Notes: generated from the sequence alone by a model not told the origin. A stretch of DNA of 64,000 nt from Blasia pusilla (GCA_050084515.1 CM114271.1:7688001-7752000); one strand, 5' to 3'; shown: positions 16,517 to 59,320, counted from the first letter of the stretch. Numbers and translations: made by a program.

Positions 16517-18963
16517 TTTTTTCCAAAAACGTGCAATATCTGAGACTCTTCGCTCTCCAAGTATCCCCGACAAGAACCTGTTTGCAACCAGTGATTCCGT
16601 ATGACAAGCTGCTGGTAAGAGGCAAAGTCTTCCTTCCACCTTTCTTACGCAGAAGCCAGAGTAAACTTTTAGATCAGCAACTCCTTTCGAAAGTCCAAAT
16701 TTTCAGCAGGTTCTTCAGCCCGAAGCAGCCGTAAGATTGCCACGCTATGAGACTCCAGCACCCAGCCACTCGTACGTAGACTCTCCGATGTTGAAATGTG
16801 AAATCGGTCTTTGTCTAAACCATTTCCAACACTGTTCGGTCACTTTTTCTTGCCTCCTGTAACCCTAATGAGCATCTGTCCCCCACCTGGTCCTGTCCCA
16901 GTACCTGGCCTAATCCACACCCTCATCCCCCTGCCTAATAGGAAGAGTTCTTGTGTTCCTATCCTCGTCAAACTGCAGCGCGGCAGCAGACTAAAGACTT
17001 TCACCACGCATCCGCTAGCAAACACGGCCTATATTGAAGCTCGTTCGTAGAGGAACCTGCCCGGCTCTACCGATTCCAAAGTCTCCAAAACTCCATCAGA
17101 TCGCCTCCACAAACCCTAAAATGAAAGAGGTCGAACTCTCAGCTGAAACAATCCTTGCAAGATTTCTCTCGGCAGACAGGCAGTCGGGATGCGGCCCTCG
17201 CAGGCGGGCGGATTCGTCAGAACGAGAAAACAGACAGCAAGGTGTTATCAACAAGCCAACCAATTGCTACCTACTGCGCTCTGCTGGCCTGTCAAAGGTC
17301 CAGTAGCCTCAGCGAGTGCGTAGTAAGTCCAACACCGACACTTCCAGTGCGATGGCTGCAGCAGGCGCTCCGAAACCCAGCAAATTCAATTTCAGACTAA
17401 GCTTTTTCCGCTCACAGCGAGGGGATGGTGCTTCACTCCTCTCGCTCGGACCGCCCGCTACAACGCAGCCGTAGCGACGCAAAACAATGGCAGTCTTCCA
17501 CGCACCTATCTCATCAAAGCCAGGGAGGGAGGAAGGAGGGGGGGAGCAACGACGCACGCAAACCAAACCAACGAGGGCGACCAAAAGTCTCGTCGACAGA
17601 CAACTAGCGGGCACATTCCAGGGAGGACGAGTACCGGTAGTAAAGTAAAAGATCTTGTCACCCCGACGAGTTACACATCTTGTTCCCCCAGCCCCGCGGA
17701 CGGAAGCCGCCAGTATCCGGTCATCCTATATGTAAATGTGACCGTCTGGGCTAACTTTTTCTACCCTCACCGAAGCGGGAGATTTGCATTTTCTCTGTAC
17801 CCTACATCAATCCTTCCACGTGGACCATCTTGCATTACCACAGCCTATGCATGTTGTAACACGGAGCACGGTCCTTTTCCGGTACCCGCAATCACTAATC
17901 AATTGCTAATGACCGCAGTTGTGCATTTACATAACCTGCCTTCACTAATCAGACTCTCTAATAACCGTAGGGTCTCTAGTTTACCGGTGTGGTCGCAACC
18001 GTCCTTTTCCGTAACCTGCCGCACACTCTCTAACTAGTGTGCGGCCTCGAGCAGATCGACGAAGAACGGGAGAGTGGCAAGGTAGAGGATATATGGCACG
18101 AAGATAAGTTCAAAGTTAGTTCACTACACAACAAGTTTTATTTTTGTTGAAAGTTGTATTTTTAGAGGGAGATGAAAGATGTAATTGGATGATAGATAGT
18201 GGGCAGCCCTTGCATTCCATTGCACTCTAATGAAAAAATTAATCTTGTTGCACAAAAAAAAAATCTTGCTACCCCTAAAGGAGAAACATTTCCTTGTTGC
18301 TGGTTGCCACGTGTCAAGCATAGAGGTGTTTACAAATCAAGAAGGCAGTCTCCTATAATCATATAAATCAGTTAGGACATGTGAGGGGACAATGCCATGC
18401 ACGTCCACTCCATGGTCCGTAACCCTCAACGCCCCGTTGCTTAAATGCCCTAAATGCTCTGTTACTTGAATGCCCCCTACCGATGCCACGTATCGCCCTA
18501 CCCATGCATGATTCAAAAGACACATGGTGAATTGTCCCATGTCACCATTTGAAAACCGCTCCTCTATTAATAGTATAGATTGGCTTATGTGCATACACAT
18601 ATTGGTGTATGGCGACCTAATGTGGAAAAACATGTGCATCTCAAATGTCGTGGCAAATATTCACCGGAGGTCAAATCGTGTCTACATTGAGGTAGGAGTT
18701 ATTTGACGTGGTACTATTGAACCTACCAAAATTCCTATCCATTGATCTTTATTTTTTAATGAATAGAAAAACTCAAGTCGATCATCACTAAGAATTCCTT
18801 CGCGTCCAACCTACATGGTAAGGTACGAAAAATTCCATAGACCAATCCATGAGACATTTTGTAAATGAACGTGACGAGACAAGACATATTATTTAGAACG
18901 TGGCGTAGGGCGCAAAAGTAGATGTTGATGTGGGATATCTTGATGAGAAGCCCTTTGAATTGA

Positions 18964-19719
18964 TGTCGTGCGCATACATATCGCTACACAACATACATCG
19001 TTGGTCACATCTACACCACACAACATCGATCTTCCCCACACACAGGTAGATCCACACATGTACAAAAATAAACTCACATATATACATGGAGATCACACAA
19101 CAAAAATAAAGAGTAGTAAAAACGGCACACCCGGCCTAAAACTCCACTCCTCAATCTACATCGGCATATCAAGCCTCGTCCACCCTACGCTATCAAGGAA
19201 TCCGGCCGCTAGCACCCTAGTTCTATCTCACACAGATATAAGAGAGGTGCTCCAATGGCCCAACATGAGAAAGATGGCTTGGGAAAGCCATCTTCCTCCC
19301 TTATATAGGGTTGGGAAGAACCAAAAGGCTCTTCCCCTAAAAATAGCTATCCTCTTGGCAACCTACGCGCACAAGTTACCAGGGGCGGGTCACCTGGTCA
19401 ACAAGTCACCCGGCTGTGAAAGACCTCAACAAGAAAGTTGTCAGAAACGACGTTCTTGACACAATGGACCTACTCCCAACCTCATCTGACACCGTGGGAC
19501 AAAGTTACACTCAAGATAGTCCGCTAGCTCCTACGCCCTATCCACGATAGATCTCGGCCTATCGTCTACTCAGATATGACAGCTGTCGTGCACATACATA
19601 TCGCTATACAACATACATCGCTGGTCACATCTACACCACACAACACTGATCTTCCCCACCCATGGGTAGATCCACACATGTACAAAAATCAACTCATGCA
19701 TATACATGGAGATCACACA
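18964..19719 (-). repeat. 3' terminal repeat block of copy B: B1 (19719-19584), spacer GC, A2 (19581-19099), B2 (19098-18964)
   Basis: 19584-19719 is a direct repeat of 18964-19098. 19099-19581 matches ~27535-28012. The junction reads ...gatatgaca-gc-tgtcgtg... on the + strand. Confidence 0.85.
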
Positions 19720-19797
19720 ACCGCCCCCCTAGCTGGTAGTTGGATCCCCCTAACTTCAGATAGAAAATATCACATCTCTCTAACATAACCTACTATC

Positions 19798-19950
19798 CTA
19801 TACACATCTCAGACACATCCATCGTCCTGTGGGAACTACATCAAGAGGGGGGGTCAGACATGACATATGCCACCCTCGAGAACAACCATCACATACCAAC
19901 ATGGTGGCTGCACCCCTCGCAGATCCGCACAACATACACCTCAAGCTTGC
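19798..19950 (-). other. PHD finger (C4-H-C3) at integrase C-terminus, copy B
   Basis: [46 protein letters not shown] has canonical PHD spacing, including the conserved W before the last CxxC. Confidence 0.92.
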
Positions 19951-21903
19951 AAGTACCACTGCCAAGCTCGGATCCACAGTCTCGTCTACGTTCGAAAGAT
20001 AACATGGCGCACAATTGCGCACATAATCCTTCCAAACCATACCATCCAGTCCCTCCAACATGAGGACTCGGATCGGTAATACCTCACGCACATATAGGAT
20101 CGTGCGCCCTGCAGTGACATCTAGCTTTGTGGGTGCCGCCTACTATAAATACACGTAATCTCCAAGATGAAACCTCCTAATCCTCAATGAATGAATGAAT
20201 GATTGAATGAATTTTATACCTCAATGTATCTCTATGTTGAGCAATAGCTAAGTTCTCAAAGGCCATAGGCATAACTCTACGGAAAATCTCCGCCCTCTGA
20301 GAACACGCTTGTACCCACACATCTGGATCATCAAGATCAAACACCTCTGCCATATAGCTACAGGTAAACCTGCCTCTCTCCCAAAGAACAAAAAGTACGG
20401 TGAAAATGACGCCAAGGGTGCCTGCCGACTAAAGCGATAGCCCATAGCCAACCATGGCAACTCTAGGTCCCACTCCCTCAACTGTCCCTGCTGCAAGCCA
20501 TACTTGCGTAATCCTCTCTTCACCGTATGTACTACTCTCTCCGCTAACCCATCCGCCTCGGGATGATCTCTGGAAGTGGTGCGGTGATCTATCAACGCTT
20601 GATCACACAAGGCCTGAAACTCTCCCCTAAACTCGGTACCCTGGTCAGTCAACACCTCCGCCTGTGCACCAAAATGACTAAGCACACGATCTAGAAACGC
20701 ACAAGCTGTTCCCTCGCTTGCCTTGTCCACTAGTGCCACCAACTCTATCCACTTAGAGAAATGCTCCACCATGACCAACACATATCTATGATGACGCCTC
20801 GTCAATCGCAAGGGTCCCGCAAAGTCTAAACTCCACCGATAACCTAAATCCATTATCGGCAAAGGATGTAACTACGGAGTGGGAGCATTGAAGGATGCTT
20901 GCACTCCGTCACATACCATACATCTGGCCACAAACTGCTGTACCCCAGTATGCATGCCGCGCCACCAATATTGAACCAGGAGTAAGCCGTAAGTACGCTT
21001 TACTCCAAAATGCCCCAACTTCTCATGGGCATGTGCACTACACGTGCTCGCTGGGAAGGATGAGGTACCACTCGTATCCTACCATCTCCCCATACCCGCA
21101 AAATATGAGTCCCCTCCCACCTGAACCTCCTCGCTTGCTGTAGGATCCGATCCCGCTCCCTAGCACTCATTGTGCTCGCTATGACGCGAGTGCGCAAGAG
21201 CTCCACAACCTGCACGTCGTCATGGTTATCACAACCACCTATCGCATCCTCACTAACCTCCAGATCCAAAGACTCATCATCCAACCCCACCATTGGAGTC
21301 ATCACCTGCGACTGACCTATCATAGTCAACCAACAAAGATAGGCACATGCATGCCATCCGGGCACCATCTCCTCATCACTCTCTCCATGCCATCGAGCTC
21401 TTGTATCGTCTCTCTGGCTCGGACATGGGTTACGACTCAACCCATCCGCATCCTGGTTCAGCCAACTTGGCCTATGAACCACTTCAAACTCATACTCTTG
21501 TAGTAATAGAGCCCACATGGCAAGCTTTCCCGTAAGCTTGTCGGACTCCATCAACCACCTCAATGGCTGATGATCAATGATAAGTGTGAAAGGGTTGCCA
21601 AATAAATAGCACCTAAAATGTGCCACGGCCCACACTACAGCCAAGCACTCTCCCTCGTAAGAGCTGTACTTTGCCTCTCCAATGTTGTTTGATCGGCTCG
21701 CGTAAGCCACAATGAACTCCCTCTCCTCGTCATCTCTCTCTGAGTAAGCACTGCTCCTAGACCCAACATGCTTCAATCTGTATGTAACTGGAACGGGCGA
21801 CCCCTAACCGGTCTCTGTAAAATGGGTGAGGACATCAACCTATCCTTGAGCTCCTGAAATGCTCGCTCCTGATTATCTCCCCACAACCAAACCTGATCAA
21901 GTC

Positions 21904-21998
21904 TTGTCAACAAGGTCAAAGACCTTGTTGACAAAAAGTGGGGCTTATATTAGTGGGGATTCTTACCAAAATGGTAAGAATCCCCACTAATATAAGCC
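21904..21998. repeat. Two adjacent perfect hairpins (14-bp and 27-bp stems, 3-nt AAA loops)
   Basis: ttgtcaacaaggtc-aaa-gaccttgttgacaa (21904-21934); ggcttatattagtggggattcttacca-aaa-tggtaagaatccccactaatataagcc (21942-21998). Confidence 0.95.
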
Positions 21999-22169
21999 GT
22001 CTTCGCACTCTCTGCTCGAACGACGTCCCAAGAAGTCCATGGGTGCCTATCTCTCCTCGTCCCACCCCCAGGAAATGCCTATACAGACCCTATGGGAAAT
22101 GGTCCAACTCCTAGACGTGACGGCATGGATGACACTCGCATCCGCCTCAGCTTAGCCATACCTAGGTTG

Positions 22170-23530
22170 ACTATCCATGTGAGACAGTTGAGGTCCATCG
22201 CTTGCCCAAGCACCTATCTCCGGGATGTCTTTGTTGTGACCCTCATAACCAAACAACACCAAATAGGCGCCAAGCGGAACATCATAACTCAAGTGGACTC
22301 AGGCTGCGATGTTTGCGCTTTGGAGAGGCGTTTGGAAAGGTCTCTTGGAAAAGTCCAAGAGATGAAAACGCGGAACAAAGTTGTGTGTTTCATGCATTAG
22401 TGGTCGCGACCAGGAAATCTAGACCAAACGCGAGCCAAGACTTGAGATGAGTTGAGTCTTGGGAGGTTGGTTGCCAAAGAGGTGAGAACCAGTTTGGAAC
22501 ACAACTAGCGTTTGGGAGAATCTGACTGTGTTTAGGACCATAACGTTGAGTTCTAAGATGCGTTTGGGACAAATAAGGGCGCGTTGGAAATCTTATCTTG
22601 AGACGCTTCCAACGCACCAAATGTCTCAGCAAACGCATAAATACAGATTGAGATATTGGCCGAAAAAAATGTTGAGAGCAATCCGGTTGAGGGCCAATTG
22701 GAGAGGTCTGTTGTAGGCTCCTCCAATTCTCGGGTCACCTCATCCCAAATCATGCCTGGCCCTCCCTGACGAAAGGCATGGGATGTTGGGAAGCTCACCA
22801 ACGTAGGTAAGGCTGCCCTCAACTCCCCCACCCTATTGGCCATCGCCAACGGTGGTCTATCATCCCGCTTCACCACCTAAGATCGACGCCTTGAGCCCAA
22901 AATAGCATCTAGTATAAGATGTGGTATTCTCTGGACTCCATCGTATGCTCAACTCAGTACCTCTGATGGTATCAAGTTTGTCCACCATAATCGTGTATGA
23001 TGGGCGCGTGATCCAACTCTTGTTATATCTAACAACACAACAGGTCCCAACCATGACCTCACATGATGCACACTCGTCATCACACGTGCACGAGTGTCTC
23101 CCAACAACGGCACATTCTCCAAAATGTACGTCGGAGAACATGTCTGACTTTCCTGCAAGTGTTGTACTACTCGCAGCATCTCCCAAAACATCCATGACCT
23201 CGGATCTTGCAATCCAAACCCTCGGCTAGCTGATGAATGACCCTGACATGGCCATCCAACAATCACCAAATGAATGGTACCAACTCTATCTAGATCCTGC
23301 GCCCCCCCTAAAGAGATGTCGGCGGGTAGTGTATGTTGATATCCTCGTAATGCGGATACCGGCAACAACTCAGGATACCTCTGGACCATTCTCCCTAAGT
23401 GACGTAATGATACCCGCTACGTGGTCTCATCTCTCTCCACATAAAGGTACCGATCCATCCGTATGGCCGCCTACAATATTGTAGCCAATCCGCTGCTAAT
23501 CCCTCCGAAGATATCTACCACCCTAACACC
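22170..23530 (-). pseudogene. C5 cytosine methyltransferase domain (copy B), interrupted by an LTR fragment
   Basis: VVDIFGGISSG, IHLVIVGWPCQGHS, YILENV, GSRAHHTRLWWTNL, VLGQAMDLNCLTWI; insertion at ~22232-22706 replaces motif IX. Confidence 0.87.
22232..22706 (+). mobile_element. Partial LTR related to the solo LTR at 49853-51163, inserted in the copy B DNMT
   Basis: Starts tgttgtgaccctcataaccaaac (cf. tgtcgcgaccttcatgaccaaac at 49853); shared blocks gcggaacatca, tggtcgcgac, caagacttgaga, gcgtttgggac, gttgagggcca. Confidence 0.75.
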
Positions 23531-26500
23531 CTCCTCTGGACACTACCACACAACGGGTTTGGTATCCAGTGGGGTCAACGTCTCCACTCTAGGAGCCCGA
23601 TCGCCACCTGACTCTCGCTGCTCCGGGATAAAGGCATGACTCTACGCCTGCCCCACGAGGTCGTTGCCACTCCTCTATAGCTCTCGAGTCGTACCCCACA
23701 ATGGTGAAGAGGTCTCGCCAACATGGGTAGAGACACCCGCCATGGTCTGTCTCTCCGTGGGACTATCCGCTACTGGGACATCCTCCGCATGTGTTCCCCT
23801 CCAACAACTCTCTTGGCCTGCTAACACTACCTATGAAAGCTGCCAACGTGGTCATAGACTCGTCTCGTGCTCCACCACCTCATCCCGCAAACTGCACGGA
23901 TAATTGACTCATCCGCCCGTCACTTGACCGCCATCCTAGCCGATAAGCAACAATCTCCTCCCAGAAGTCAAGGATGAATCCTAGGGGATATAACATTGTA
24001 CTCCCCACCAATACATCGTATGACTCAGCTGGTGTCATAATCGCACGTGTGCGCACCATAGCACTATCCGTCGCATGCTCTGACTAGACTCTGACAACTA
24101 TCTCCTGTCGAGTCATATATTGCGTAGGTGACACGCCCCCAATCGAGGTTTGTATCTAGAAGGGACAAGTCTCAATGTCGGCCTTCCGTAACCACAACGC
24201 TAAACATGCCACCTTCTCTAACATCAAGGGTTGCCCTCCTGAATCAAGTAAGACACGTTGCGGGTGGTATACTGTCCCGGTCGGACTAACCAAGCGAAAT
24301 ACTCCAGCTTCGTTATCCAATAACACTACTCAAGGTGTCACCACTGCTCGCTCAAAGGCAAGTCGAGCTGGCATATCTACCAACTTTGCCGCCGCTGCAT
24401 GCCATGACTCTCTGGGGGACGTTCCGAGCATCGGCTCTGAGGGCAAGTCCACCACCTCCTCAACTACCTCCGAACAAGAAGTAGTCACCTCTCCACGCTC
24501 AATCAATGTGGCGGCCATCCGGAACACCTCAGCTGGTCCAACACCCAACGTCGCCAACTCTATGGCGGAAAATAGCGGAGTCTGACTCACTCTAATGGCC
24601 ACCTCCAACATTATGATCCACATTGACTCCACTCGAGCCGGCATAGCAGTTTTTACTCCAACTCCTCATGATGTCGACGTACTTGCATGAGCTATAGGCA
24701 CCGCTGGTCGTCGAGGCACCATCGATGGTGTGAGTAGTGCCTCCAACAATGTAAATGACTGTGGAATCCTGGCTTGCCGCCCATCGGTCCCCTCCGGTGG
24801 GTCAATCCCAACTCCACCTCTCAATGGCTCGGTACCTCTCGTAGCACCCCGAGTCACCACTGCAACTGCCTCAACCTGAGCTACACTACACATAAACCCC
24901 ATACTAGGAAGATCCTCACCCGGATCAAGATAAGAGGTAGAAGCTGGGGCCACACTAGCTGCTCGCGGCTGCGTGCCTTCCTTGAGCTGCATCTTCGTAA
25001 TGGCAGCAATCCTCTGCTCCAACTAATCGTTGCGTGAGAGAAGTGCCGGCTCTGATGCTCTTGCTCCATCTCCTCTGGCTGGTGGTGGTCCTCTATCACC
25101 ATGTACAGGAAGAACTCCCTGACCCCCTCCAAGACAACCACCCCAGGCCCTCGGCCTACCTCTGGACGTGCCTCTCGACGAAGGTCAAAACATGTATCCC
25201 TAGTGTGACCATATCTGTGGCAATAGTCACACTTGTATTATGGTGGGGCCATCCTATGTGGCTCTTGAGAAATCGGAGGCGCTCGTGGTCCTCCCATCTG
25301 TCCCTGCTGGGCAACATATGTAGGTACGGGTCATTGCCTCATAGGCTCACGGTACCCGCCCTCCTCTCTGGGCACACTGGCCAACTCCCGTGGTAATGGT
25401 GCTTGTTGTGGCACCTGTGGGATCACCGTCGCTCGTGGACCCGTAGACTCTCGAGAAAATCCAGCGGTCATTACCTCCTCCTCACTCATCTTGAGCTCAA
25501 TACGCTCAGACAACTCAAAGACCACCTTCAATGTGGGCTTTGTTGTGTGAATCAACACCTCATCTCGGACTCTCCTCCATAGTTTTTGGTCTAAAACCTC
25601 ATACCAATACTGGACTGACTGCACCTCAGTCACACCATACGTAGCAATGATGAGCCTCCTCATGCTCGTGAATGCCTCTCTCAGACTCTCACCTGATCAT
25701 CGCTGAAAATCCTTTAGACTCTTCAGCTTGCCGGTGTGTACGCCCTGGTAGCTCTTTCCCAACTGTCGGAAGAACTCCACTGTGGGATTGAAGCTGGGTG
25801 GCCCTCTACCACCAGAGGTCTCTGCTACATCGTCTGTCTTAGTGCCCTCCTCTCAATCTAGTCTCCAGACTGATGGTGTGGGTCTCTCTCCTCTCACGAT
25901 CCCATCATATACCTCCCGACCACTAGTGGACACATACCCTAGAGCCCAATACATCCTCCAAGAATTGATCTCTACTGAATACTGATTGAAACTCCATGTA
26001 ATCATCCATTGGAGGACCCTCCAAGTGCTGGAACAACCCCTTCCATGCCATGAAAGGGTTGAACCGTGTCGGGGTCCATATCTCTTGGAAGTCGCACCAC
26101 GTGTCGAACTCCCGGATGAAATCATATAAGTCGATGGTACCCATTGCACCCGAGAAACGATGCATGCCCCAATGGCCCATGTCATCCATCTCCTGCCAAG
26201 TGATACTGCCTTCGTCTGCAATCTCATCACCAGACCCAATGTCTAGTGATGTCGATCCAGTCACGGATGAATGTCGAGGTAGCTCCTCGTTGGTAACCCC
26301 TTGGTATCTCACTCCACTCCGTGTCACACCACTACCACTGCTCGCATTACCCCGTTCTTTCAAACCTTGGAAGAACGTCGTGATGACAATCCTGTCTCAC
26401 CCGCTCAAGCCCTCAGACTCACTGAGAGTCTCCCACACTCCTCACTAGCTCACCGATGCTAATGATAATCCTGTGATGGCACACCCGGCCTCACGCACAC

Positions 26501-27033
26501 TCAACACTCGGGCTCACCATGAGCCTCCCAACTGACTCACCTAACCTACCGACACTCTCGGGTCATACATGCGACCCCTACTCGGCAACCGCCATATATC
26601 CACCAACATGCTACACATGAAAAGAGTCTACACTTGTCACCATCACTCCACCCACCAGCATCAGCTCCTACCCAGTACCCAACACTCTCAAACACATAAG
26701 ATAAGTGCGAGAAAAGAGACTCGAATGGGTAATATGATCACGTCCACCAACCTATTGCATCGTCAACATCCACTCCATATGTGTGGCATGAAAACCTCCG
26801 TAGCACAACCATCTCCTCGCACACCCGTCAAACCTCCCGTCAGCATCGGCATGTGTGTCCCCATCTCAACCCTCACAACTCCCCCGAGGGGGGGGGGGAC
26901 TAAATGCAGGAGAGGGGAGGGTAAGGGATAGGCCGCGGCTTTGTCTGCCTCCGCCTCCGGCTCGGAGTCACCTGCAACCTAGCCGCACTTGCAATCCTAG
27001 CCGTGGCGGCTATAAACTCTCGACATGTTCTCC

Positions 27034-27318
27034 CTACACTCCCGTTGTGCGCCGTTCTCTCGACGCTCCAACACTCTACGTTGCACCAGAGCGCTCGATA
27101 TTTTCTCTCTACACTCCCGTTGTGCGCCGTTCTCTCGACGCTCCAACACTCTGCGTTGCACCTAAGCGCTCGATATTTTCTCTCTACACTCCCGTTGTGC
27201 GCCGTTCTCTCGACGCTCCAACACTCTGCGTTGCACCTGAGCGCTCGATGTTTTCTCTCTACACTCCCGTTGTGCGCCGTTCTCTCGACGCTCCAACACT
27301 CTGCGTTGCACCTGAGCA
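27034..27318. repeat. 75-bp tandem repeat (~3.8 units) in the 5' leader of copy B
   Basis: Unit ctacactcccgttgtgcgccgttctctcgacgctccaacactctgcgttgcacctgagcgctcgatattttctct starts at ~27034, 27109, 27184 and 27259. Confidence 0.95.
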
Positions 27319-27534
27319 CTCCTGCGTGACCCCCACTCTGTTATTGTCCCTCGTCAACCTGCACCAGCAAAATCTGAGAAAAACAGACAGCGCTTCCGCC
27401 CACGGCCTTCTAAACAGAAAAATGACCAATGAAACGCCAACCAGCGTCTCTTGGGGCTTCCCACCGAGGCAACTCGCTTGCCTACCTACAAACAAGGAAT
27501 TTCCACCAGCCCCTTGACATCTGTCTCATTTAAA

Positions 27535-28012
27535 AATAAAGGGTAGCAAATATGGCACATCCGGTCTAAAACTCCACTCTTCAATCTACATCGGCATATC
27601 AAGCCTCGTCCAACCTGCTCTATCAAGGAATCCGGCCACTTGCACCCTAATCCTATCTCACACACATACAAGAGAGTTGCTCCAACGGCCCAACATGAGA
27701 AAGATGGCTTGGGAAAGCCATCTTCCTCCCTAATATAGGGTTGGGAAGAGCCAAAAGGCTCTTTCCCCTAAAAATAGCTATCCTCTTGGTAACCTATGCG
27801 CACAAGTTACCAGGGGAGGATGACGTGGTCAACAAGTCACCCGGTTGTGAAAGACCTCGATAGGAAAGTTGTCAGAAACAACGTTCTTGACACAATGGAC
27901 TTATCTTCAACCTCATCCGACATTGTGGGACAAAGTTACACTCAAGATAGTCCACTGGCTCCTACGCCCTATCCATGATAGATCTCGACCTATCGGCTAC
28001 TCAGATGTGATA
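27535..28012 (-). repeat. 5' terminal repeat A1 of copy B (A only, no B module)
   Basis: Direct repeat of 19099-19581; homology stops at the aaaaataaag run and the ~135-bp B module is absent. Confidence 0.85.
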
Positions 28013-28288
28013 TTGAGGAATAGTGAGAAGTTCATATGTAAATAGAGTAGTCTTTGCACTTAGAGTGGTTTTCAATGCATTATACGCAAGCAAAGAGTTT
28101 TCATCATTTACCCAGAGTCCGCATCTCATAATAGAAGATGATGGCTTCACAAAATTAAGAATGAGACTAACGAAAGATTAAATGCGTGAAGTTGAAATTG
28201 TTGTAAGTGCTACACCAGATCAAAGGTAAAGTGTACCTTTTGGAAGTTGTAGAAAACAATAATTATAAATGACAAATAATTGGAAGTA

Positions 28289-29208
28289 TGTCACGTCTTT
28301 TTGGATTGATCGATGAGTTTACAATCAAATGCCTTCGAATTCGAGGATACTAGAGAATAGCCTCAAGAGGTCAAGGATGACCTATTAAGGCCATAGGTAA
28401 CCTGAGAGAGCAAATTTTCCTTTTATTTTTGGCACATTTGAATCTATGAATAGAACTAATTGTTTTGGGTAAACTACCTTTATGAGTATATTTTACTTTC
28501 TACTTTGGGAAGTGGCCCTTGATCCCCTACAGTAGATTAAGAGCTAAAGAGATGATTTACGAGCATAGATTACCATTGAGAGAGCGTGTGTCACGTCTTT
28601 TTGGATGGATCGACGAGTTTATAGTTGAGTGTCTTTGAGGATATTGGAGGATAACCTCAAGAGGCCAGGGATGGCCTATGGAGGCCAAAGGTAACATGAG
28701 AGAGTAAGTTTTCTTTTTGTTTCGGCTCATTTGGAGCTATAAATAGAAACTAACTTTTTTGGGCAAGATACCTTTATGAGTTTCTACTTTGGAAAGTGGC
28801 CCTTGATCCCCTATAGCAAGTCAAGAGCCAAGGAAGTGACTTACAAGCATAGATTACAATGAAGAGAGCTTAGAAGAGGGAAGGGGGTATACCCTAAGAG
28901 GGAGATCTTTGGAGCTCATTCTCTCTTTGTTGAACCTCTTGGCATGAGGCAACAAAACTATGGTCCTCCTTGCCTTGTGAATAAACCAAGCCTCTCATTG
29001 GGAGAATGGGTTTGGTTTTATGAGAGAGAGAGATATGCAGTTGTGTGAACATTGCAAGAGATATTTGAGAGATCTTGATTTATTGGAGATTTTTTCGTAC
29101 TTGATGGTCTCGATGTTAAGATGGCATGAGTTAGTATGGTATCTTGTGTGTTTGTGTGTATTTGATGACAACAATATATGTTACATGGCGACGTCTATGC
29201 GCACGACA
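28289..29208 (+). repeat. Family-Y terminal repeats: partial A (28289-~28584) followed by a full A+B unit (28589-29208)
   Basis: Both start tgtcacgtcttttt; the second ends tatgcgcacgaca. Similar to 47415-48018 and to the reverse complements of 29450-29860 and 48510-48997. No TSD found. Confidence 0.8.
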
Positions 29209-29868
29209 TGATCATATTCGTCATCATCATGTTAGTTTAGCTAACCAAGATGTTAGCTGAACTAACATAAGGTCCTCTTAAAGAGGTATCAGGTTCAACT
29301 CTCCCCTTGGACAGTGGGGGACTGTCTCAATCCAAAGGCAATGGTGCCCCCAATCTAGGGTATGGATGGTCCATGTTCAAGAGAGAGAATACCTTGTGTT
29401 CCTTTCATGTGTGTGCCTTGACTATTATCGTGCCCAAACATTGATGTTGTGGGTTACACTCATAACGCAAGGGACCATAGCTCGGCCGCCTCATGCCAAG
29501 AGGTTCAACAAAGAGAAAATGAACTCTTAAGCTCTCTCTCCTTGAGGTATACCCCTCCTCTCTCCCAAGCTCTCTCCATGGTAACCTATTCTCCCAAGTC
29601 ACCTCCTTGGCTCTTGACCTGATATAGGAGGTCAAAGGCCACTTACCAAAAATAGAAATTCGATCATATATTCAAAATGATACTTACCTAAAATAGCAAG
29701 TTCCTCAATATGGCTCCAAATGAGCCTAAACGAAGGGGAAACTTGCTCTCTCCGGTTTCCCGAGGCCTCAGCAGGTCATCCTCGATCTACTAAGCATGTC
29801 ATCCACTACTCACAAAGGCGCTCTACTAGATCTCACCGATCTATCCTAAAAGACGTGACAGTTGTCGT

Positions 29869-30488
29869 TGTCACATCTGAGTAGCCGATAGGCCGAGATC
29901 TATCGTGGATAGGGCGTAGGAGCCGACGGATTATCTTGAATGTAACTTTGTCCCACAGTGTCGAATGAGGTTGAGGATTGGTCCAATGTGTCAGGAACGT
30001 CGTTTCTGACGACTTTCATGCTGAGGTCTTTTACAGCCGGGGGACTTGTTTACCAAGTCACCCGCCCATGGTAACCTGTGTGCGTAGGTTACCAAAGGAA
30101 GGGCTATTTTTAGGGGAAGAGCCTTTTGGCCCTTCCCAACCCTATATAAGAGAGGAAGATGGCTTTTCTAAGCCACCTTTCTCATGTTGGGCCGTTGGAG
30201 CACCTCCCTTGTATGTGTGTGAGCTAGGACTAGGATGCTAGCGTCCGGATTCCTTGATAGCACAGGGTGGACGATGCTCGATATGCCGATGTAGATTGAG
30301 GAGTGGAGTTTTAGGCCGGGTGTGCCATTTTTACTACTCTTTATTTTTGTTGTGTGATCTCTATGTATATGTATGAGTTGATTTTTTTGTACATGTATGG
30401 ATGGACCCGTGTGTGGGGAAGATCGGTGTTGTGTGGTGTAGATGTGACAAGCGATGTATGTTGTGTAGCGATATGTATGCGCACGACA
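29869..30488 (+). mobile_element. Solo A+B repeat (family X, as in copy B) with 4-bp TSD TCGT
   Basis: Reverse complement of 18964-19581; termini tgtcac...cacgaca; TCGT at 29865-29868 and 30489-30492. Confidence 0.9.
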
Positions 30489-30776
30489 TCGTGCGCATAC
30501 ACCTCGCTACACAACATACATCGCTGTCACCGAACACGCACGATCCCATGCTAACTCATGGCATCCAAATAACGAGACAAGAAGTACTAAAATATCTCTA
30601 ATCGCCCCCCTAGTTGGTGGTTAGGTCCCTCTAACTCTAGATAGCCATCTATCCCTACCTACCATGACATACATCTCTCGGACGCTAAGAGCAAGAAGGC
30701 CGGGTGCTCATGTGGCCCCATCGTTAGTCGCCTTCCTATCATCCATGTCATAGAAAAAGTCGGAATCGAAACCTAC

Positions 30777-32017
30777 CTAGTATCTCCTATATGTACATCT
30801 GGGACACATCCATCGTCCCCGAGGAACCCTAGTGAGAGGTGGCGTCAGACATGCCATATGCCAACCTCTCGAACATCCATCACAAACTAGCAACGTGGCC
30901 GCACCACAAGCAGAACCACACAACATACAACGCAAGCCTGCAAGAACTACTGATGAGCTTGAATCTTCTATACCATTAATATTAGGAAGGTGACATGGCG
31001 CACAATTACGCACATGGTCCTTCCATACCATACCATCGCGTCCCTCCAAGAAGATAACACCGGATGGCAAAACGTCACGCTCTCTCAGGATAGTGCGCCC
31101 TACAATCACATCCAACGTCGACGGTGCTGTCTCCTCGAAGTAGACATAATCTCCTTGATGAAACCTCCAGATAGTTGGTCGATAACCACCACACCGAATA
31201 GTCGCATATCTCAACGTATCCCGATGTTGCGCAATTTCCAAGTTGTCGAACGCCATAAGCATTATTCTCCGAAACAACTCAACCCTCTCAAAACATGCTC
31301 GCATCCATACATCTGGGTCATCAAGGTCCTGCATCTTACCAACATCTCGACGAATGGCTGAAGGTAAATCTGGCTCTCAGCCATAAAGTAGCAAGTACGA
31401 TGAAAAAGACGCTAAAGATGTCTGCCTGCTGAATCAGTATTCCATCGCCAACCATGGCAATGGAGGTCCCAATCTCCTAGGTGACCTCTCTGCAAGCCAT
31501 ACATGCGTAAACCCCTCTTCATCGTCTGCATAACTCTCTCCGCTAATCCATCTGCCTCGGGATGATCTCGCGAAGTGGTGTAGTGGTCGATCAACGCCTG
31601 ATCACACAATGCTTGGAACTCACCGCGAAACTCGGTACCCTGGTCTCTCAACACCTCAGCCGGTGCGCCATAATGACTCAACACTCTGTCAAGGAAGGCA
31701 TAAGCTACTCCCTCACTTGCTTTGTCAAGCAATGCAACCAACTCGATCCACTTTGAGAAGTGCTCGACCATCACCAACACATAACGACTATGATGCTCTG
31801 TCAAAGGCAAAGGTCCTGAAAAATCCAAACTCCATCTATACCCTAAGCCCATGATCGTTAATGGATGCAACTGTGGAGTCGGAGCATTGAACGATGCTCG
31901 AACCCGATCACACACCATGCACGTGGCAACAAACTGCTGAACGTCACTCTGCATGCCTTGCGACCAATACTGAATCTGGAGCAAGCGGTACGTCCGCTTC
32001 ATCCCAAAGTGACCCAA
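30777..32017 (-). pseudogene. DDE integrase with N-terminal HHCC and C-terminal PHD finger (copy C)
   Basis: GHFGMKRT...[76 protein letters not shown]. Confidence 0.92.
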
Positions 32018-32857
32018 CTCCTCGTAGGCATGTTGTACTAGTCATGCTCTCTGCAAAGGATGCGGCACTACGCGTATTGTGCCATCCTCCCAAACCCTCA
32101 AAATATGTGTCCCCTCCCAACGGAACCGTATGGCCCGCTGAAGGATCCGATCTCGCTCTCTAGCACCCACGGTGCTCGCAATCTGCCAATCCAGAGGTAC
32201 TCCAAGACTACTCCATCATTATGAATATCTCGGCCATCTGTCGTCTCCTCACTGGTCTCGGGATCCAAGGACTCTCCACTAGACCTCGCCATCAAAGTCT
32301 CCACACTCTGGCTCTCCATAGCCAACATGCCTAAATAGGCTGACCCGTGCCATCCTGGCACTGACTCCTCATCACTCTCTCCATGCCATCGAGCTCTAGT
32401 CGCATCTCGCTGACTCGAGCATGGGTTACAACTCAACCCATCTGCATCCTGGTTGAGCTTCCCAAGTCTATGTACCACTTGAAAATCATACTCCTGCAAC
32501 AACAGAGCCCATCTCGCAAGCTTCCCAGTAAACTTGTCGGACTCCATCAACAACTTTAGTGGTTGATGATGAGTGATGATGGTAAAGGGATTGCCGAATA
32601 AGTAACACCTGAAATGCGCGACAACCCACACTGCAGCCAAGCACTCACCCTCATACGAGTTGTACTTCGCCTCTGTAGCGTTGTTCGAGCGGCTAGCGTA
32701 AGCCACCATGAACTCTCTACCCTCATCATCATGTTGGGTGAGCACCGCTCCAAGCCCCAAAATGCTCCAATCTGTGTGAAATTGGAAAGGACCCCCCCCT
32801 GATCGGTCTCCTCAAGATGGGCGTGGACATCAACCTATCCTTGAGCAAATAAAATGC

Positions 32858-33862
32858 TCACTCATGCTCATCCCCCCAGTGCCACTCGTGATCCACCTTG
32901 GTCAGCAAGGTCAGCGGCTTCGCAATTGGACTAAATCCCTTGACATACCGCCGATAGAAGTTCGCCAATCCCATGAATGCGCGAACACGGCTCACATTTG
33001 TAGGGCGTGGAATGCGTGAGATAGCCTCTACCTTTGTCAACTGAACATCAAGGCCCCTTGGGTATATCATATGAACCAAGTACTCAATCTGGTGGTAAAA
33101 GAACTTGCACTTGCGTGGATGTAGATTCAGCCCATGTAATTGCAATCGTTGAAACATCTCCTCTAGATGTCGTTCATGCTCCTCAACCGTGGGGCTAAAG
33201 ACTACGATGTCATCAATATAACACCTAGCAAAATCCACACCAGCCAAGATCCTATCCATGACCCTTTGAAACTCATCCGGGGCATTCTTTAACCCAAATG
33301 GTAAGAACCGCCACTGGTACAAACAATCCTTCCCATGAGGATCGATGCTCGAAAATGCCGTCTTCTGCCTGTCCTCCAATCTGATAGGCAGCTGATGGTA
33401 TCCGACTCGCAAATCCAATGAACTGAAAACCTTTGCATGACCAATCGCATCAAAGATCTCCTCAGGGGTGGGCATGGCATACCTATCGGACTTCGTCTGC
33501 CGATTGATAGGTCGGTAATCCCCACACATCCGCCTATCCGTCCACTTGCCATGCACATCCTTCTTGGCGGGCATGAAAGTGGCACATGCATACTCCCCAT
33601 GCGACATCTCCACTAGTCCTGCTCCAACCAAGTCCTGGCTCCTACTCTGAATCAGAGCCCTCTCCATATCAGTGTATCTGTAGGATGGTCGAAAGATCGG
33701 CGTATCAGTCGACAACTCAATGCGGATCCCCGGTCCCTTCAGCATACCCAAATCCTCCATGCTAAACGCAAAGCAACTCCTATAACTCCTAAGGAACTGA
33801 TGTATTCGATGTTGCTCTCCTCCTGTCAACTTAGGGCCCATATCTGGCTCACAAGTCTCCAT
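32858..33862 (-). CDS. Ty3/Gypsy reverse transcriptase (334-aa open segment, copy C)
   Basis: RRMCGDYRPIN, DRYAMP, FSSLDLRVGYHQ, LPFGLKNAP, YIDDIVVFS, KCKF, VRAFMGLANFYRRYV. Confidence 0.93.
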   Translation of the reverse strand: METCEPDMGPKLTGGEQHRIHQFLRSYRSCFAFSMEDLGMLKGPGIRIELSTDTPIFRPSYRYTDMERALIQSRSQDLVGAGLVEMSHGEYACATFMPAKKDVHGKWTDRRMCGDYRPINRQTKSDRYAMPTPEEIFDAIGHAKVFSSLDLRVGYHQLPIRLEDRQKTAFSSIDPHGKDCLYQWRFLPFGLKNAPDEFQRVMDRILAGVDFARCYIDDIVVFSPTVEEHERHLEEMFQRLQLHGLNLHPRKCKFFYHQIEYLVHMIYPRGLDVQLTKVEAISRIPRPTNVSRVRAFMGLANFYRRYVKGFSPIAKPLTLLTKVDHEWHWGDEHE

Positions 33863-34209
33863 CGTGACTACCGTAGGACTCTCCGGCGCGGATATCGGTG
33901 GTTGTTATGGTGCAACCCTGTCTCGAACAACAATACTTGACCGCTCTCCTGTAGCCAACTTCAAAATCTGATCTCCTCCACATGTAGTGCCCGGAACTAT
34001 GCTCGATGTTGTGGCTATCATCTCCTGGCATACTTGCAAAACATCCCAAGAAGTCCAAGGGTGTCTCTCTCGATCTCCCCTGGTGTGTAAATCTCCTTGG
34101 GTCTCGCCCCCCGCCATTGCCTCCACCATCTCGGTAGGCATGGGGCTCACCAACGCAACCGCTGTGATCTGTCACGATCTCAGCCGACGCTGCTAAGCCA
34201 CTCCGAAGC

Positions 34210-35160
34210 TAAAGATCCATGTCAAGTTGTTGAGGTCCATCGCTTGACCCAAGACATGGCGTCGTGATGCCTCTGATACTGACGGGATTGCCGTCACTCC
34301 CGTGGGAAATCCCATCGCCCGCTCTCTCTCTTGTCGACGTTGGGCTCCACCAACCTCTGAACGTGGTCATCCCAAACCAAGCCAAGACCGGCCTCCTTGT
34401 ATGCATACGGAGCGGGAAAACGCACAAACGTGGGAAAGGCTGCCCTCGTCTTGCCTACTCTATTGACCACAGTCAACGGTGGTCAATCATCATGCCTCAC
34501 TGCCTGAGAGCGACGACCTGGATCTAGAATGGAATCCACTAACAAATGGGAGGGGCACTCCACTCTCGCATACGACTTCCGTAACACCGCATGGGGCACC
34601 AAGTTGGTCCACCATAAACGCAGGCGATGGGCTCTAGAACCTACACTTGCCGCATTCAAGAACACTACTGGGCCGATCGAGGCACACACCTGATGAGCAC
34701 TCGTCACCACTCGTGACCTGGAGTCTCCTAAGATCGGCACATTCTCCACAATGTAGGTTGGAGAACAAGACCGATGCTCCTGCAACTGCCATAAGACCCT
34801 CAACATCTCCCAAAACAACCTGGACCGAGTGTCAGCCAACCCGCTGCCTCGTCCAGCACTCGATTGGCCCTCACATGGCCAACCGGCAATGACCAAATTA
34901 ATGGTGCCTAAACGGTCTAAGTCCTGCGCCCCCAACAACGAAATATCCCTCGGTAGTGAACTCTGGTATCCCTGTACCGCGGACGCAGACAATAAGTCGG
35001 GAAAACGTAGGCGTAATTGCGCCACATGTCATAGCGAGATGCGCCTCGCAACATCATCACTCTCCACATACAGGTACTATTGTACTCGCACTCCTGCCTG
35101 TAAAACAACAACTAACCCGGTGCCAATCCCTCCAAAGAGATCTAACACTCGAATATCCTC
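34210..35160 (-). pseudogene. DNMT3-like C5 cytosine methyltransferase domain (copy C), all main motifs present, with stops and frameshifts
   Basis: I: RVLDLFGGIGTG; II-like: YLYVE; IV: INLVIAGWPCEG; V-like: GLADTRSRLFWE; VI: YIVENV; VIII: GSRAHRLRLWWTNL; IX: ERAMGFP; X: HVLGQAMD. Confidence 0.92.
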
Positions 35161-38100
35161 CTCCGCAATACACCACACAATGGGTGTGGTATCCAAGGAT
35201 GTCATCGTAGCACTCCCTGCTACCTCGGGTTCCTCAGACCTGTCATGCTTCTGTGCAAACGCCTCACTCCACGCGATTTGCACGTGCTCATCTTCCAATC
35301 ATCAAAGCTCCTCAATCGAGCCCCACAGCGGCACCTCTCCTCCACGGAATGATGCGGCTACCATAACACTCCTCTCCATAGAAATTTCAGGAACGGGAGT
35401 ATCCTCTGCATGGACATGTCCCTCAATCAAATCAGTAGGCCAAGTGATGGCACTGCTAAATGCTGCTAAGGTCGCCATCTCTCCTGGCCGTTGCTCGATC
35501 ATTGCACATGTGAATCGAATGGATAATGACCTAAGGCGCCCATCACCTTACTGCCATCTTGGTCTGTAGGACGTTGACTCTTCCCTGTAGTCCAAGGAAA
35601 ACCCCATCGGGTATAACACTGTTCCACCAACCAAGACGTCCTACGACTCTGCATCAGTCACTATCGCCTTGGCTTGCACCACCGACTCATCTGTAGGATA
35701 TCCCGGGCGAATCCTCACCACGACCTCCTATCGGGTGATATACTATGTGGTACTTGCTCCACCCAAGGATGTCTGTATCCGGAATGGACAACGCTCCACA
35801 TCAGCTCTCGTCAAACCCAATCCTTTGAATGACGCTTTCCCCAACATCAGGGGTTTCGCTCCTGAATCCAACAAGACACGTTGCAGACTAAAAGCTCTAC
35901 CTCCGGGACTCACCAATTGGAAGACCTCTCCTCAATTATCCAGCAATACAACAATAGTCCTTCCGATGTTATGACGTTGGGGGTACGCCTCGGCGGGCGT
36001 ACCCCCAACGTCATAACATCGGAAGCAGAAAATAAAGGAGCGCGATACACAATGGTGGCCGCCCCAACAACGTGCTCGACACATGCCCCTCCTGAGCATC
36101 AACAATAGGAGTCGTTGTACTTGCTTCTCCCATCACCCTCCGTGCTTGCACACCTACAATGTCACCAACTCTCAAGGAACTCTGATCAAGACCCATCGAT
36201 GGGGTCCTCATCACCTCGAACAACGTGAAAGATTGAGGAAGCCTAGTCTGTTTCTTGGCTTCCCCTCACTGTGGATCCAACTCTACGGCTACTCCACGTG
36301 TCACAATTGCAGCGGCCTCCATCCAGGCAACCCCGCACATCCAACCAGGATCCTCCATATCTCTGGCTGCTCCATATGATGTCAATGCCATGGATCCGGC
36401 GTCGGGTAATCTCAATGCCATAACAACAATCTGCTTCTAGCTGATGTATCTGAGCAGCCATCCTAGCCTCACGCCCGGCATCTCCCTCGACGTGTCTAAG
36501 TGGTACGACTCTACCTCCTCCACGCGCAGCTCCACCACCATGTTGGGCAACTCCAGCTCCTCGTCCCCCAACGGGACCACCTGGTGCACAATCTCTAGGC
36601 CTACCCGGACCGGGTACTCGTTCTGGTGCCCTCTCTGGCCCTCGGTCCGGATGTAACTCACGATGTAAAATGAAACACCTGGCGCGTGTATGACCATACC
36701 TTTGACAATAGTCACACTGATAACATCCTGATGCAGCACCATCTCCTCCTCCATGTTGAGGCACACGTCCATGACCCTGACGAGTGCAATCGTACTGATG
36801 ATGGGCTCCACCACATGACCAACAAGTAAAAGTAGACGGCTACTATTGAGCCGCATATGAAGGCGTAGGTCTCTGTGGCACGGCCTCCCGATATCGTCCT
36901 TGAGCTCGTGGTGCCACAGTCGACCTATCTCGGAGTCCACGTTGCTGCACAGGTAGTGCAGCCAATCGTGACTACTCTCGCCCAGAACCCATGGTGGCTA
37001 CGCTCTCCTCCGCCATGATGCGCTTAATGTTCTCGGGGGTCCTAAAAACATCTCTCAACGTAGGGGAGGTGTTCATAAGAAGCACCCCCTCCCGCAGCCG
37101 TGTCCGTAGGGTCCAGTCTAGCATCGCGTACCATGACTAGATAGCCTGAGCCTCTATCATCCCCTGAGTGACGTTGATCAACCGGCGCAAGCGAGTGTAA
37201 GCCTCACGCAAACTCTCACCCGGGCGCCTCTGGAAGTCGTGGATGCTCCACAAGTTCTCCGTCCGTACTCCTTGGTAGCTCGCCCTCAACTCAACAAAGA
37301 ACTCAACCACATGGTTGAACCTGGGATGAACCCAACTAGACGGTGCAACAGCTCTCGTATAAGTGACCCCTCCTAAAACGTCATAAGTGGAAGAGGAATT
37401 AGCCTCTCCTGACTCCTCCTCCTCATCTGGGAATGGCTCCGTCCATGACACATAATGTGGGTCATAGTAGAGCCTCCATGCCTCGATCTCACATGCATAT
37501 CTTTGAGAGAACTCATGGTAATCCTCCATGGGCGCCCCCTCTAAATGCTAGAACATACCGTTCCATGCTGTAAACGGGTTAAACTCTCTAGAGTTTTTGG
37601 CCTGTTGGGAGTTGCACCAACTCCTAAACTCTCTTTTGAAATCGTGAAACTCAATCGTGCCTGCTGCATCTGAAAACCTACATGGTCCTCTACCCCAATC
37701 GTCCATCTCGTACGCCCAACTAGTAGGACCACTCACAATGTGTGGCGATGTGCTCACAAAATCCTCTACATGCTCCCCCTCGTCTGAAGACCAAACTTAG
37801 ATAAAAAGAGATTGAGGTGGTCTCTCACATGGAGACCCTCAAAACCTTGCACCACTTCGGGTAAATCCTCAAGAGCTATTCTCAGGTATACTACCTCGCC
37901 TCTCAAAATCCTGAAAGGATGGCGTGATGGCCCTCGTGCCCCTCTCACACGATCACTCTCAACCGTGTGAGTAATCCCTCAATCACTCATCCCAAATATA
38001 CGGCACGCAATCTACACTCTCCCTCCCCGAGACCTGTAACGTGCGGCAACAAGCGGCGTGGTGCAGCAAATCGACCAGGCTATCATCTCATTGAAAATCT

Positions 38101-41100: not shown

Positions 41101-41744
41101 AGTTCAAGTTCCTGCATCATGTTCAGAGGTGATTGTAGAGGAGATGATGGACTTTCCCTTGGAGCAGATGCTCGGGCCGTCCACGTCAGATTCATGGCAG
41201 GCTTTGGCTGCTAGGATGGCGCAGATGCCCGCTAGACCCGCGATAGAGCGTGCCATGGCTCCTCCTGGTGTTGTGTTGCTGGATAACCCAGGAGAGGTCT
41301 TCTAGTTGGTGAGTCCCGGAGGTAGAGCTTTTAGTCCACAGCACGTCTTGTTGGACTCAGGAGCACAACCCCTGATGTTGGGGAAAGCATCATTTTGAGG
41401 ATTGGGCTTGACGAGAGGTGATGTGGAGCGTTGTCCATTCCAGATACAAACATCCTTGGGTGGAGTGAGTACCACACAATATATCACCCGACAGGAGGTC
41501 GTGGTGAGGATTCGCTCGAGACATCCTACAGATGAGTTCATGGTGCAAGCCAAGGCGATAGTGACTCATGCAGAGTCCTATGATGTCTTGGTTGGTGGAG
41601 CAGTGTTATACCTGATGAGGTTTTTCCTGGATTCCTGGGAGGAGTCAAAGTTCTACAGACTAGGATGGCCGTCAGGTGATGGGTGCCTTAGCTCATTATC
41701 CATTTGATTAAAAAATGCAGTGATCGAGCAATGGCCAGGAGAGG

Positions 41745-44660: not shown

Positions 44661-44669
44661 GATCACCCG

Positions 44670-58770: not shown

Positions 58771-59320
58771 TGTTATAAAACATAGTAACTTGGAATTTAC
58801 TATAGTGAAAAGTAACTGATAGAATTACTATAGTAACTTAGTGTTTTACCACAATAAATAGTAATTTCTTGTTACCATAGAGTTACCTCAGTAATTCTGA
58901 GAATTACTATGGGCGACAGGCCCTAACCCTAAAACCTAGAAACTCATCCTCTTGGCTGTATATAACCCTCTGAGGGTGCCTTGCGAATTTACATTCTCTT
59001 ACACCTTTCTGGACACAACTCTCGAGGTGAGGAGGCGATTGAGAAGCACCGAGTATGCTTTGCTTACCGAGTGGATTGTGCTTCGACCTTAGTAGTTCAA
59101 AGTGTGCTAAGCATCGAGTGTGATCGCTTCTGATCGAGAGGTCTGGCGACTTGAGGAGTTGAGAAGTCTTGTGATACAAGGTGTATAGTAGTACTAACTT
59201 GAGTGGTTGCTATTGAGATGTCTCTGCTGCTAACTGTGAGTGGTTGCTATTGCACTAAGTGTGCTTGAGAATGCAAGGTGATCTGGTGATCTTTCGCTAA
59301 TCGAGAATATGATTGATTGT

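Follow-up and report, generated by a model that had tools for sequence, protein, structure and literature searches.

The arrangement A1-internal-B1-A2-B2, referred to as split direct repeats, defines the PAT-like DIRS and the Ngaro retroelements, whose members code for a tyrosine recombinase and insert without a target duplication (PMC8969392, PMC4157794; statements taken from these and the other papers cited rest on parts of each source). A genomic copy of the PAT/Ngaro kind would correspond to a two-long terminal repeat (two-LTR) circle of a BA-internal-BA molecule that has been opened between B and A, and the layout has been treated as a signature of tyrosine-recombinase retroelements. Closest to the element reported here is KnitGypsy-Dnmt3 of Klebsormidium nitens, for which a figure legend gives a DIRS-type repeat structure together with Gypsy domains (de Mendoza et al. 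2018, PMC5890265, Fig. 4c legend), and a preprint names streptophyte 'Gypsy-DNMT3' elements (bioRxiv 10.64898/2026.05.21.726589, as far as the part drawn on here goes). Here we describe E1, an element on the minus strand of a 64,000-nucleotide (nt) stretch of Blasia pusilla DNA (GCA_050084515.1 CM114271.1:7688001-7752000; the window), in which split direct repeats occur on a high-copy element that has a DDE integrase and TG...CA ends and makes a target duplication. We put at roughly one half the probability of the explanation that we favour as a whole: that E1 belongs to an abundant streptophyte Ty3/gypsy family whose normal genomic form is A-internal-polypurine tract-B-nn-A-B, nn being a 2-nt spacer, in which the registers used by reverse transcription and by integrase are offset and insertion follows a joined-end route.

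A first-pass annotation of the window had called the replication route possibly undescribed. The layout itself was already in print for KnitGypsy-Dnmt3, as the portion of PMC5890265 cited above makes clear, and no mechanism for it was found in the text of that paper, figures and supplements aside. The literature searched yielded neither other descriptions of split direct repeats on integrase elements nor any description of the route. Details for which we found no earlier account are the proposed register offset, the duplications and the candidate self-priming site.

Read along the minus strand, E1 consists of TCAA, A1, leader, gag, protease, DNMT, RNase H, integrase, PHD finger, polypurine tract (PPT), B1, gc, A2, B2 and TCAA. 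Its ends and repeats are as follows.

28013-28016, minus strand: left copy of the 4-bp target duplication, TCAA on this strand and TTGA on plus (direct reading)
27532-28012, minus strand: A1, the sole repeat at the 5' end, beginning TATCAC and holding a decayed TATA-like box (repeat comparison and direct reading)
27706-27695, minus strand: 12-mer CATCTTTCTCAT within A1 (direct reading)
27518-27529, minus strand: candidate self-priming primer-binding site, 2 nt past A1 (complementarity to A nt 307-318, one mismatch)
27013-27387, minus strand: four to five 75-bp tandem repeats in the leader (repeat comparison)
19722-19730, minus strand: PPT AGGGGGGCG, touching B1 (direct reading; conserved in E2, L001, L002 and L003, described below)
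19584-19721, minus strand: B1, GTTGTGTG...CACGACA (repeat comparison and direct reading)
19582-19583, minus strand: spacer gc, 2 nt, separating the CA of B1 from the TG of A2 (direct reading)
19102-19581, minus strand: A2, TGTCAT...CTTTATTTTT, with TATATAA at 19307-19301 (repeat comparison and direct reading)
18964-19101, minus strand: B2, the right terminus, last letters ...CACGACA (repeat comparison and direct reading)
18960-18963, minus strand: right copy of the target duplication, TCAA on this strand (direct reading)

A1 and A2 are 90.4% identical over 479 nt and B1 and B2 are 91.3% identical over 138 nt, a combination of length and identity too great for the repeats to have arisen by chance. 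With the order read directly, the PAT/Ngaro-type layout that had been reported for this locus is borne out; the repeats lie where the first-pass annotation had placed them, and some of its edges are shifted by a few bases. B2 starts at the same base as B1, both in E1 and in a metagenome locus (L001) presented below, and there is no gap between A2 and B2. The B end in E1 reads GCGCACGACA, and the start of A and the end of B are short inverted repeats of each other, of the TG...CA type; TATCAC at the start of A1 is a decayed TGTCAC, the TG of which is now TA. Direct reading past A1 found no TGG-type tRNA primer site, in line with the earlier remark that none was obvious there.

The 3' end of E1 can be compared with relatives inside the window, which we designate as follows.

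29450-37807, minus strand: E2, including its A repeat, A' (30489-37807 up to A3B3), 74% identical to E1 (alignment, Pfam and direct reading)
29869-30488, plus strand: A3B3, a solo A-B unit of E1's family, 89.6% identical to A2B2 (alignment and direct reading)
39255-48017, plus strand: E3, 86-94% identical to E2 and of the same family (alignment)
window start to 4151, plus strand: E4, a relative (alignment)

The order in E2 is gag, protease, DNMT, RVT_1, RNase H, integrase, PHD finger, PPT, B', ac and A', with A3B3 interrupting it. B' is made up of 30602-30489 plus ACGACA at 29868-29863 and shares its last ~40 nt with the B of E1; the spacer ac lies at 29861-29862, and a truncated A' runs from 29860 down to about 29450. 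Without the A3B3 insertion the E2 sequence becomes ...GCGCACGACA - ac - TGTCACGTC... and has the form B'-nn-A'. A3B3 is flanked by a 4-bp duplication of its own, TCGT, at 29865-29868 and 30489-30492. The 3' end of E3 is A-B followed by flank at 48017, and a deletion (47413-47415) that fuses its integrase frame to about nt 20 of the terminal A has removed the remaining integrase, the PHD finger, the PPT and the internal B.

The architecture also recurs outside the window. A metagenome scan with the C-terminal 199 residues of E2 as query gave three loci (L001-L003) among 63 pattern matches. L001, whose protein is 65% identical, comprises PPT, B (ending CACGACA), gt, A (starting TGTCATGACA, 463 nt), B and flank, and its B1 and B2 are 98% alike; a young copy from an independent source therefore shares the architecture. 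In addition, raw whole-genome shotgun reads from X13, a run labelled with the same species and sampled at about 1 in 100, were aligned to E1 at 85% likeness, as were contigs of three other runs (X1, X2 and X3); the counts given here are those of the best-supported joints and loose ends, and another 150 joints and 5494 loose ends exist. Depth in X13 is ~730-1700 over the body of E1 versus ~4 in the flank bin 28009-28300, and the family is therefore very abundant. Loose ends past the B end at 18964 occur in at least 2257 X13 reads and their consensus (agreement 0.43) matches the spacer ac and the A' start of E2 in every letter, passage from the B end to an A-type start being the commonest continuation in these reads. 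The joint of B end to A start (28010 to 18964) is present in at least 18 reads and in at least 1, 2 and 1 contigs of X1, X2 and X3, respectively. Two X1 contigs bridge the A2-B2 joint, and since each has 13-14 differences they represent other copies.

E1 belongs to a plant retrotransposon family of very high abundance and is an old and decayed member of it, and we hold with considerable confidence that the split-repeat layout is a trait of that family. The concern raised in the first-pass annotation, that most copies might have conventional LTRs and this one be a one-off, fails on the data reached: the B-nn-A-B 3' end recurs in E2, in L001 and in raw reads, and the duplication around A3B3 lies at its A start and B end.

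The internal part of E1 has reading frames full of stops, and the following coding remnants can be assigned.

25159-26396, minus strand: gag remnants with a CCHC knuckle (YKCDYCHRYGH) (comparison with relatives; no Pfam match)
23883-24329, minus strand: protease remnants with the motif LLDSGG, which from general knowledge we take to be protease (motif; no Pfam match)
22706-23641, minus strand: DNMT3-like C5 cytosine methyltransferase region, interrupted by stops (C5 DNA methylase piece, PF00145, 7e-8; tblastn against the E2/E3 DNMT pieces, 7e-70)
21929-22705, minus strand: expected reverse transcriptase (RT) stretch, without an RT remnant (Pfam and tblastn)
21003-21949, minus strand: RNase H, Ty3/gypsy type (RT_RNaseH, PF17917, 9e-25; PF17919)
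20251-21078, minus strand: integrase, H2C2 zinc domain and rve core (Pfam Integrase_H2C2 and rve, 7e-13; the E2 homologue is alignable to Ty3 integrase)
19801-20139, minus strand: C-terminal PHD finger, then a stop codon (PF00628, 4e-11 and 2e-9 in the Pfam scans)

The intact plan is seen in E2, which has gag with a CCHC knuckle, protease, DNA methylase, RVT_1 (3e-29), RNase H (RT_RNaseH, 3e-32), integrase (Integrase_H2C2 and rve) and PHD finger, the Pfam matches falling in that order. The E2 integrase aligns to Ty3 integrase (PDB 7q5b, 1.9e-16) and to prototype foamy virus (PFV) integrase, and the D, D and E columns are retained. The D-x35-E pattern finds no match in it because the spacing is 34 residues, and the Ty3 alignment has a one-residue gap. 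The rve match, the catalytic columns kept in E2 and TCAA on both sides of E1 confirm the DDE integrase and 4-bp duplication claimed earlier. That no tyrosine recombinase is seen also holds: neither Phage_integrase nor RVT_1 gave a Pfam match in the three sense frames of E1 (E <= 0.05), and Phage_integrase was absent from the ten E2 and E3 pieces scanned with Pfam.

Two registers can be recognised in these copies. In both insertions with two readable ends, the duplicated 4 bp directly adjoin the first base of A and the last base of B (TCAA for E1, TCGT for A3B3). What is conserved between families is the A start, TGTCA(Y), and the last ~40 nt of B, which are 83-90% alike among E1, E2 and L001; the remaining B is unalignable. 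As read from the sequence, the integrase register is A...B, with ends TGTCA(Y)...ACGACA plus the 4-bp duplication. The PPT ...AGGGGGGCG is conserved and touches B in all five copies that have the region. At the other end, leader nt 3-14 can pair with A nt 307-318 at all but one position, a partner that starts 31-32 nt after TATATAA, and the mismatched base (27523) is the pairing letter in 320 of 323 reads. Self-priming of the Tf1 type appears likely from this complementarity. Because the PPT touches B and the candidate priming site lies just past A1, reverse transcription should define the LTR as B-nn-A, and on balance we regard it as probable that the reverse-transcription and integrase registers are offset. 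The A-B joint is identical in E1 and A3B3. In E3 the terminal A-B joint contains GGGGCG, which is the 3' end of the PPT and fits a joint formed from the plus-strand start.

These positions suggest the following route. The transcript would start inside A, ~31 nt after the TATA box, and its first 12 nt would prime the minus strand at the site just past A in a Tf1-like manner, with the plus strand presumably primed at the PPT that touches B. Usual reverse transcription would then give a complementary DNA (cDNA) of the form BnnA-internal-BnnA, the outer ends of which (GTTG... and ...TTTATTTTT) would be no integrase ends, and each LTR of which would contain abutted integrase ends, CA-nn-TG. Joining of the outer ends, in a two-LTR circle or a head-to-tail LTR junction, would produce the A-B joint that is observed, and cutting of one internal CA-nn-TG junction by the DDE integrase would give A-internal-B-nn-A-B, so that the inserted DNA would be a permuted form of the cDNA. 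The 2-nt spacer would leave recessed 3' ends and 2-nt 5' overhangs, as normal end processing does. A one-LTR circle would yield A-internal-B, of which L002 may be an example, and a copy of this kind could not go through another cycle, its RNA being without the 3' repeat. Recombination between A1 and A2 would leave solo A-B units, as are observed. PFV and human immunodeficiency virus type 1 (HIV-1) integrases have been reported to cleave two-LTR circle junctions (PMC1180852, PMC1905944). The first-pass annotation had proposed a circularised BA-internal-BA cDNA; the positions of the PPT and of the candidate self-priming site lend that model support. Opening of a circle or junction is offered as the simplest route, a tentative choice at somewhat less than even odds. 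More tentative again is the suggestion that the whole DDE-integrase lineage obligatorily replicates via a joined-end intermediate, its integrase opening the internal CA-nn-TG as in insertion sequence (IS) circle junctions.

Several observations weigh against the favoured explanation. What is shown comprises the layout and its recurrence, the ends, the duplications and the protein domains; the transcript start, the poly(A) site, self-priming, the linear cDNA, the circle and cleavage at the junction are all inferred, and the A-only 5' end with a duplication is read directly in E1 alone, A3B3 being a solo unit. E2 and E3 are without a 5' A, a conclusion drawn because none of 18 comparisons of their upstream flanks with all A variants exceeded the shuffle maximum; they share a common 5' breakpoint, CTCTTTTTATCTAAGTTT (corresponding to ~26276 in E1), next to unrelated flanks, and the model gives no account of this. 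Even depth across the A1/leader border (323 at leader base 27523 versus ~300-326 in A1) is consistent with contiguity in many copies without proving it. The self-priming match in E1's own letters is modestly unlikely by chance, at ~2% of shuffles (a complement as good appeared in 43 of 2000 shuffled leaders), and the E2 and E3 leaders contain complements of 8-mers at most. The E1 RNA between putative start and primer site, when folded, lent no support, with z = 1.04 and 179 of 200 shuffles folding at least as well, and in that fold only the first 4 nt pair at the primer site; moreover, 2 nt (aa) stand between the A end and the 12-nt site and are missing from the A-B joint. Two of the metagenome loci also differ from L001: L002 is B followed by unrelated DNA and L003 is B-ca-TGTCATG followed by unrelated DNA. 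The contigs of all three loci break inside the element, and L002 and L003 may be collapsed assemblies of near-identical B1 and B2, B1xB2 recombinants or unit-length A-internal-B insertions. Finally, the 2-nt spacer varies, being gc in E1 (19582-19583), ac in E2 (29861-29862), gt in L001 (2499-2500) and ca in L003 (484-485); the gt of L001 and ca of L003 accompany B repeats that are 99% alike, which a spacer that is simply inherited fails to predict.

The main rival is a linear route without a circle, in which the RNA would run to the B2 end, perhaps through poly(A) cleavage at the terminal CA, the minus strand would start there, and integrase would trim the left B-nn from a cDNA BnnA-internal-BnnA-B. 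Its product would be identical to the one observed, the GT/T-rich B that follows a T-run at the A end could aid 3'-end formation, and the last ~40 nt of B are conserved well past the usual needs of integrase binding. Nevertheless we consider this route unlikely, as no primer site or foldback was found at the B2 end, the candidate primer site past A1 would have no role, and integrase would need to remove a 140-nt end, for which we know of no precedent. Less probable still is a conventional AB-LTR element that became what is seen through a one-off rearrangement (loss of the 5' B and gain of a partial tandem LTR at the 3' end) or an assembly artefact. Contiguous A-B units do exist (29869-30488; 28592-29215) and AB ends are TG...CA, but solo AB units are also expected from A1xA2 recombination of the split layout. 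The PPT touches B rather than A in 5/5 copies, L001 repeats B-nn-A-B and E2 shows B'-nn-A', the spacer being invariably 2 nt long, thousands of reads pass from a B end to an A-type start, and the TCAA duplication flanks A1 and B2. An assembler should not have collapsed or duplicated the E1 repeats, which are just 90% alike. Taken together, PPT-B adjacency, recurrence, reads and duplication largely refute the conventional element with a deletion as well as the artefact.

A further rival is a composite formed by targeted nesting, whereby an A-internal-B unit would have inserted beside a solo AB unit or the reverse. Element ends can be hit, since A3B3 inserted 2 bp inside the B' end of E2; however, the 4 nt before A2 (CAGC) differ from those after B2 (TCAA), the 4 nt before A1 (TCAA) differ from those after B1 (GCTG), the duplication encloses the entire composite, and the 2-nt spacing recurs in E1, E2 and L001. 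We reject nesting on the grounds of the differing sub-unit flanks, the whole-unit duplication and the recurrent spacing, and would grant it no more than the very small chance left to the conventional element. Smallest of all is the chance of DIRS/Ngaro-like mobilisation that borrows, in trans, the tyrosine recombinase of another element. It would account for a repeat layout that equals that of PAT and Ngaro (as given in parts of PMC8969392 and PMC4157794), but no Phage_integrase was found in E1 or in the scanned E2 pieces, and both readable insertions (2/2) have 4-bp duplications, which DIRS elements lack according to the part of PMC8969392 drawn on. Along with the duplications, the TG...CA ends and the catalytic columns kept in the element's own integrase lead us to reject it.

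E1 itself appears to belong to a derivative lineage. E2 has a 348-amino acid RT frame where E1 has none, and because tblastn with the E2 RT matched just its last 21 residues in E1 we regard E1 as an RT-less derivative. Reads cover E1 21929-22705 at a depth of ~730-1170, and so this RT-less, presumably non-autonomous subfamily seems very abundant. Depth over the leader at 26725-27366 is ~28-52, versus ~1000 in the body, which indicates that most relatives are without the part of the leader containing the 75-bp repeats.

The DNMT region lies in pol between protease and RT (22706-23641 in E1, 34212-35298 in E2 and 44579-45529 in E3), and the PHD finger at the integrase C-terminus replaces a chromodomain. 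The solved structures closest to the DNMT piece are DNMT3A, 3C and 3B (5e-5 to 1e-3), with the bacterial M.HaeIII behind at 3e-3. The nearest proteins in a large collection are 22 polyprotein-like entries with 49-65% identity, 12 from Marchantia polymorpha, three from Calypogeia fissa and seven unnamed; none of the 22 is from K. nitens, which is little informative as the search requires shared 5-residue words. The named entries point to a streptophyte host, the relatives of its element being liverwort-like. Comparison of the DNMT piece with viral contigs gave 12 pattern matches and no relative, and a protein atlas search returned generic C5-methylase clusters without informative taxa.

Further observations concern the surroundings of these elements. 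Element ends may be preferred targets, judging from A3B3 and L003: A3B3 sits inverted in E2, 2 bp inside the B' end (29865-30492), and the L003 DNA past B begins with 2 nt plus TGTCATG, resembling an A start. E2 and E3 stand head to head with 1447 bp between them (37807/37808; 39254/39255). The plus strand at 28292-29215 carries an A-B unit from E2's family, with an A that is partly tandem-duplicated (starts at 28292 and 28592) and flanking 4-mers that differ from each other. In L001, telomere-like CCCTAA repeats mixed with ATACTGGG occupy 370-555, just upstream of the 5'-truncated element. Another repeat pair in the window (96%) is formed by 54820-55477 and 59321-59977; together with an inverted copy (84%) at 56898-57579 it probably marks a different element in the region 54802-59977.

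The layout described here makes it possible to ask apart from each other what is entangled in DIRS, PAT and Ngaro elements, namely the role of the repeats in transcription and reverse transcription and the needs of the recombinase. If the internal junction is indeed used, two-LTR-type circles would be productive intermediates for these elements and not dead ends, and LTR finders that seek two matching LTRs would mis-annotate or miss a very abundant family. Should the whole lineage use joined ends, split direct repeats would follow from the way RNA and cDNA are made and not from the kind of recombinase; they would then have originated convergently in integrase and tyrosine-recombinase elements or been retained when a Gypsy body joined DIRS-like ends. 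The DNMT3-like domain and the PHD finger give the family an epigenetic side as well.

Among known systems, KnitGypsy-Dnmt3 is the most similar by description: it has a Gypsy pol with an inserted Dnmt3-like methyltransferase, and its repeats are called 'the same as that of a DIRS retrotransposon' in the part of PMC5890265 drawn on. The same source gives it 'fewer copies' in K. nitens, in contrast to the very high copy number here; in addition, the host here is another plant, a PHD finger stands at the integrase C-terminus and E1 is without RT. With PAT-like DIRS and Ngaro elements, E1 and L001 share A1-internal-B1-A2-B2; E1 differs from them by its DDE integrase, by TG...CA ends with a 4-bp duplication, and by the absence of any recombinase match in its three sense frames. 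In self-priming elements of the Tf1/sushi/Tcn1 group the transcript's first ~11 nt can pair with a site beside the 5' repeat, and the 12-nt stretch with one mismatch near A1 is a candidate for such a site. Self-priming has been predicted for 12% of plant LTR elements (PMC6317226, in the part cited).

Conventional Ty3/gypsy elements share with this family the order gag-protease-RT-RNase H-integrase (in E2), a PPT, TG...CA ends, a 4-bp duplication and an integrase that can be aligned to that of Ty3. They differ in having two identical LTRs, with the primer site directly following the 5' LTR and the PPT directly preceding the 3' LTR, where E1 has only A at its 5' end and PPT-B-nn-A-B at its 3' end. 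The present family also has a DNMT between protease and RT and, instead of a chromodomain, a PHD finger. In insertion sequences of the IS3, IS30 and IS911 types, abutted ends in circle junctions are transposase substrates. As in these IS circles and in retroviral two-LTR junctions, the ends of the present element lie a few bp apart (CA-nn-TG), and a DDE enzyme could free both reactive 3' ends together; the difference is that here the junction is permanent inside genomic copies, so that the route would be obligatory and not a side path.

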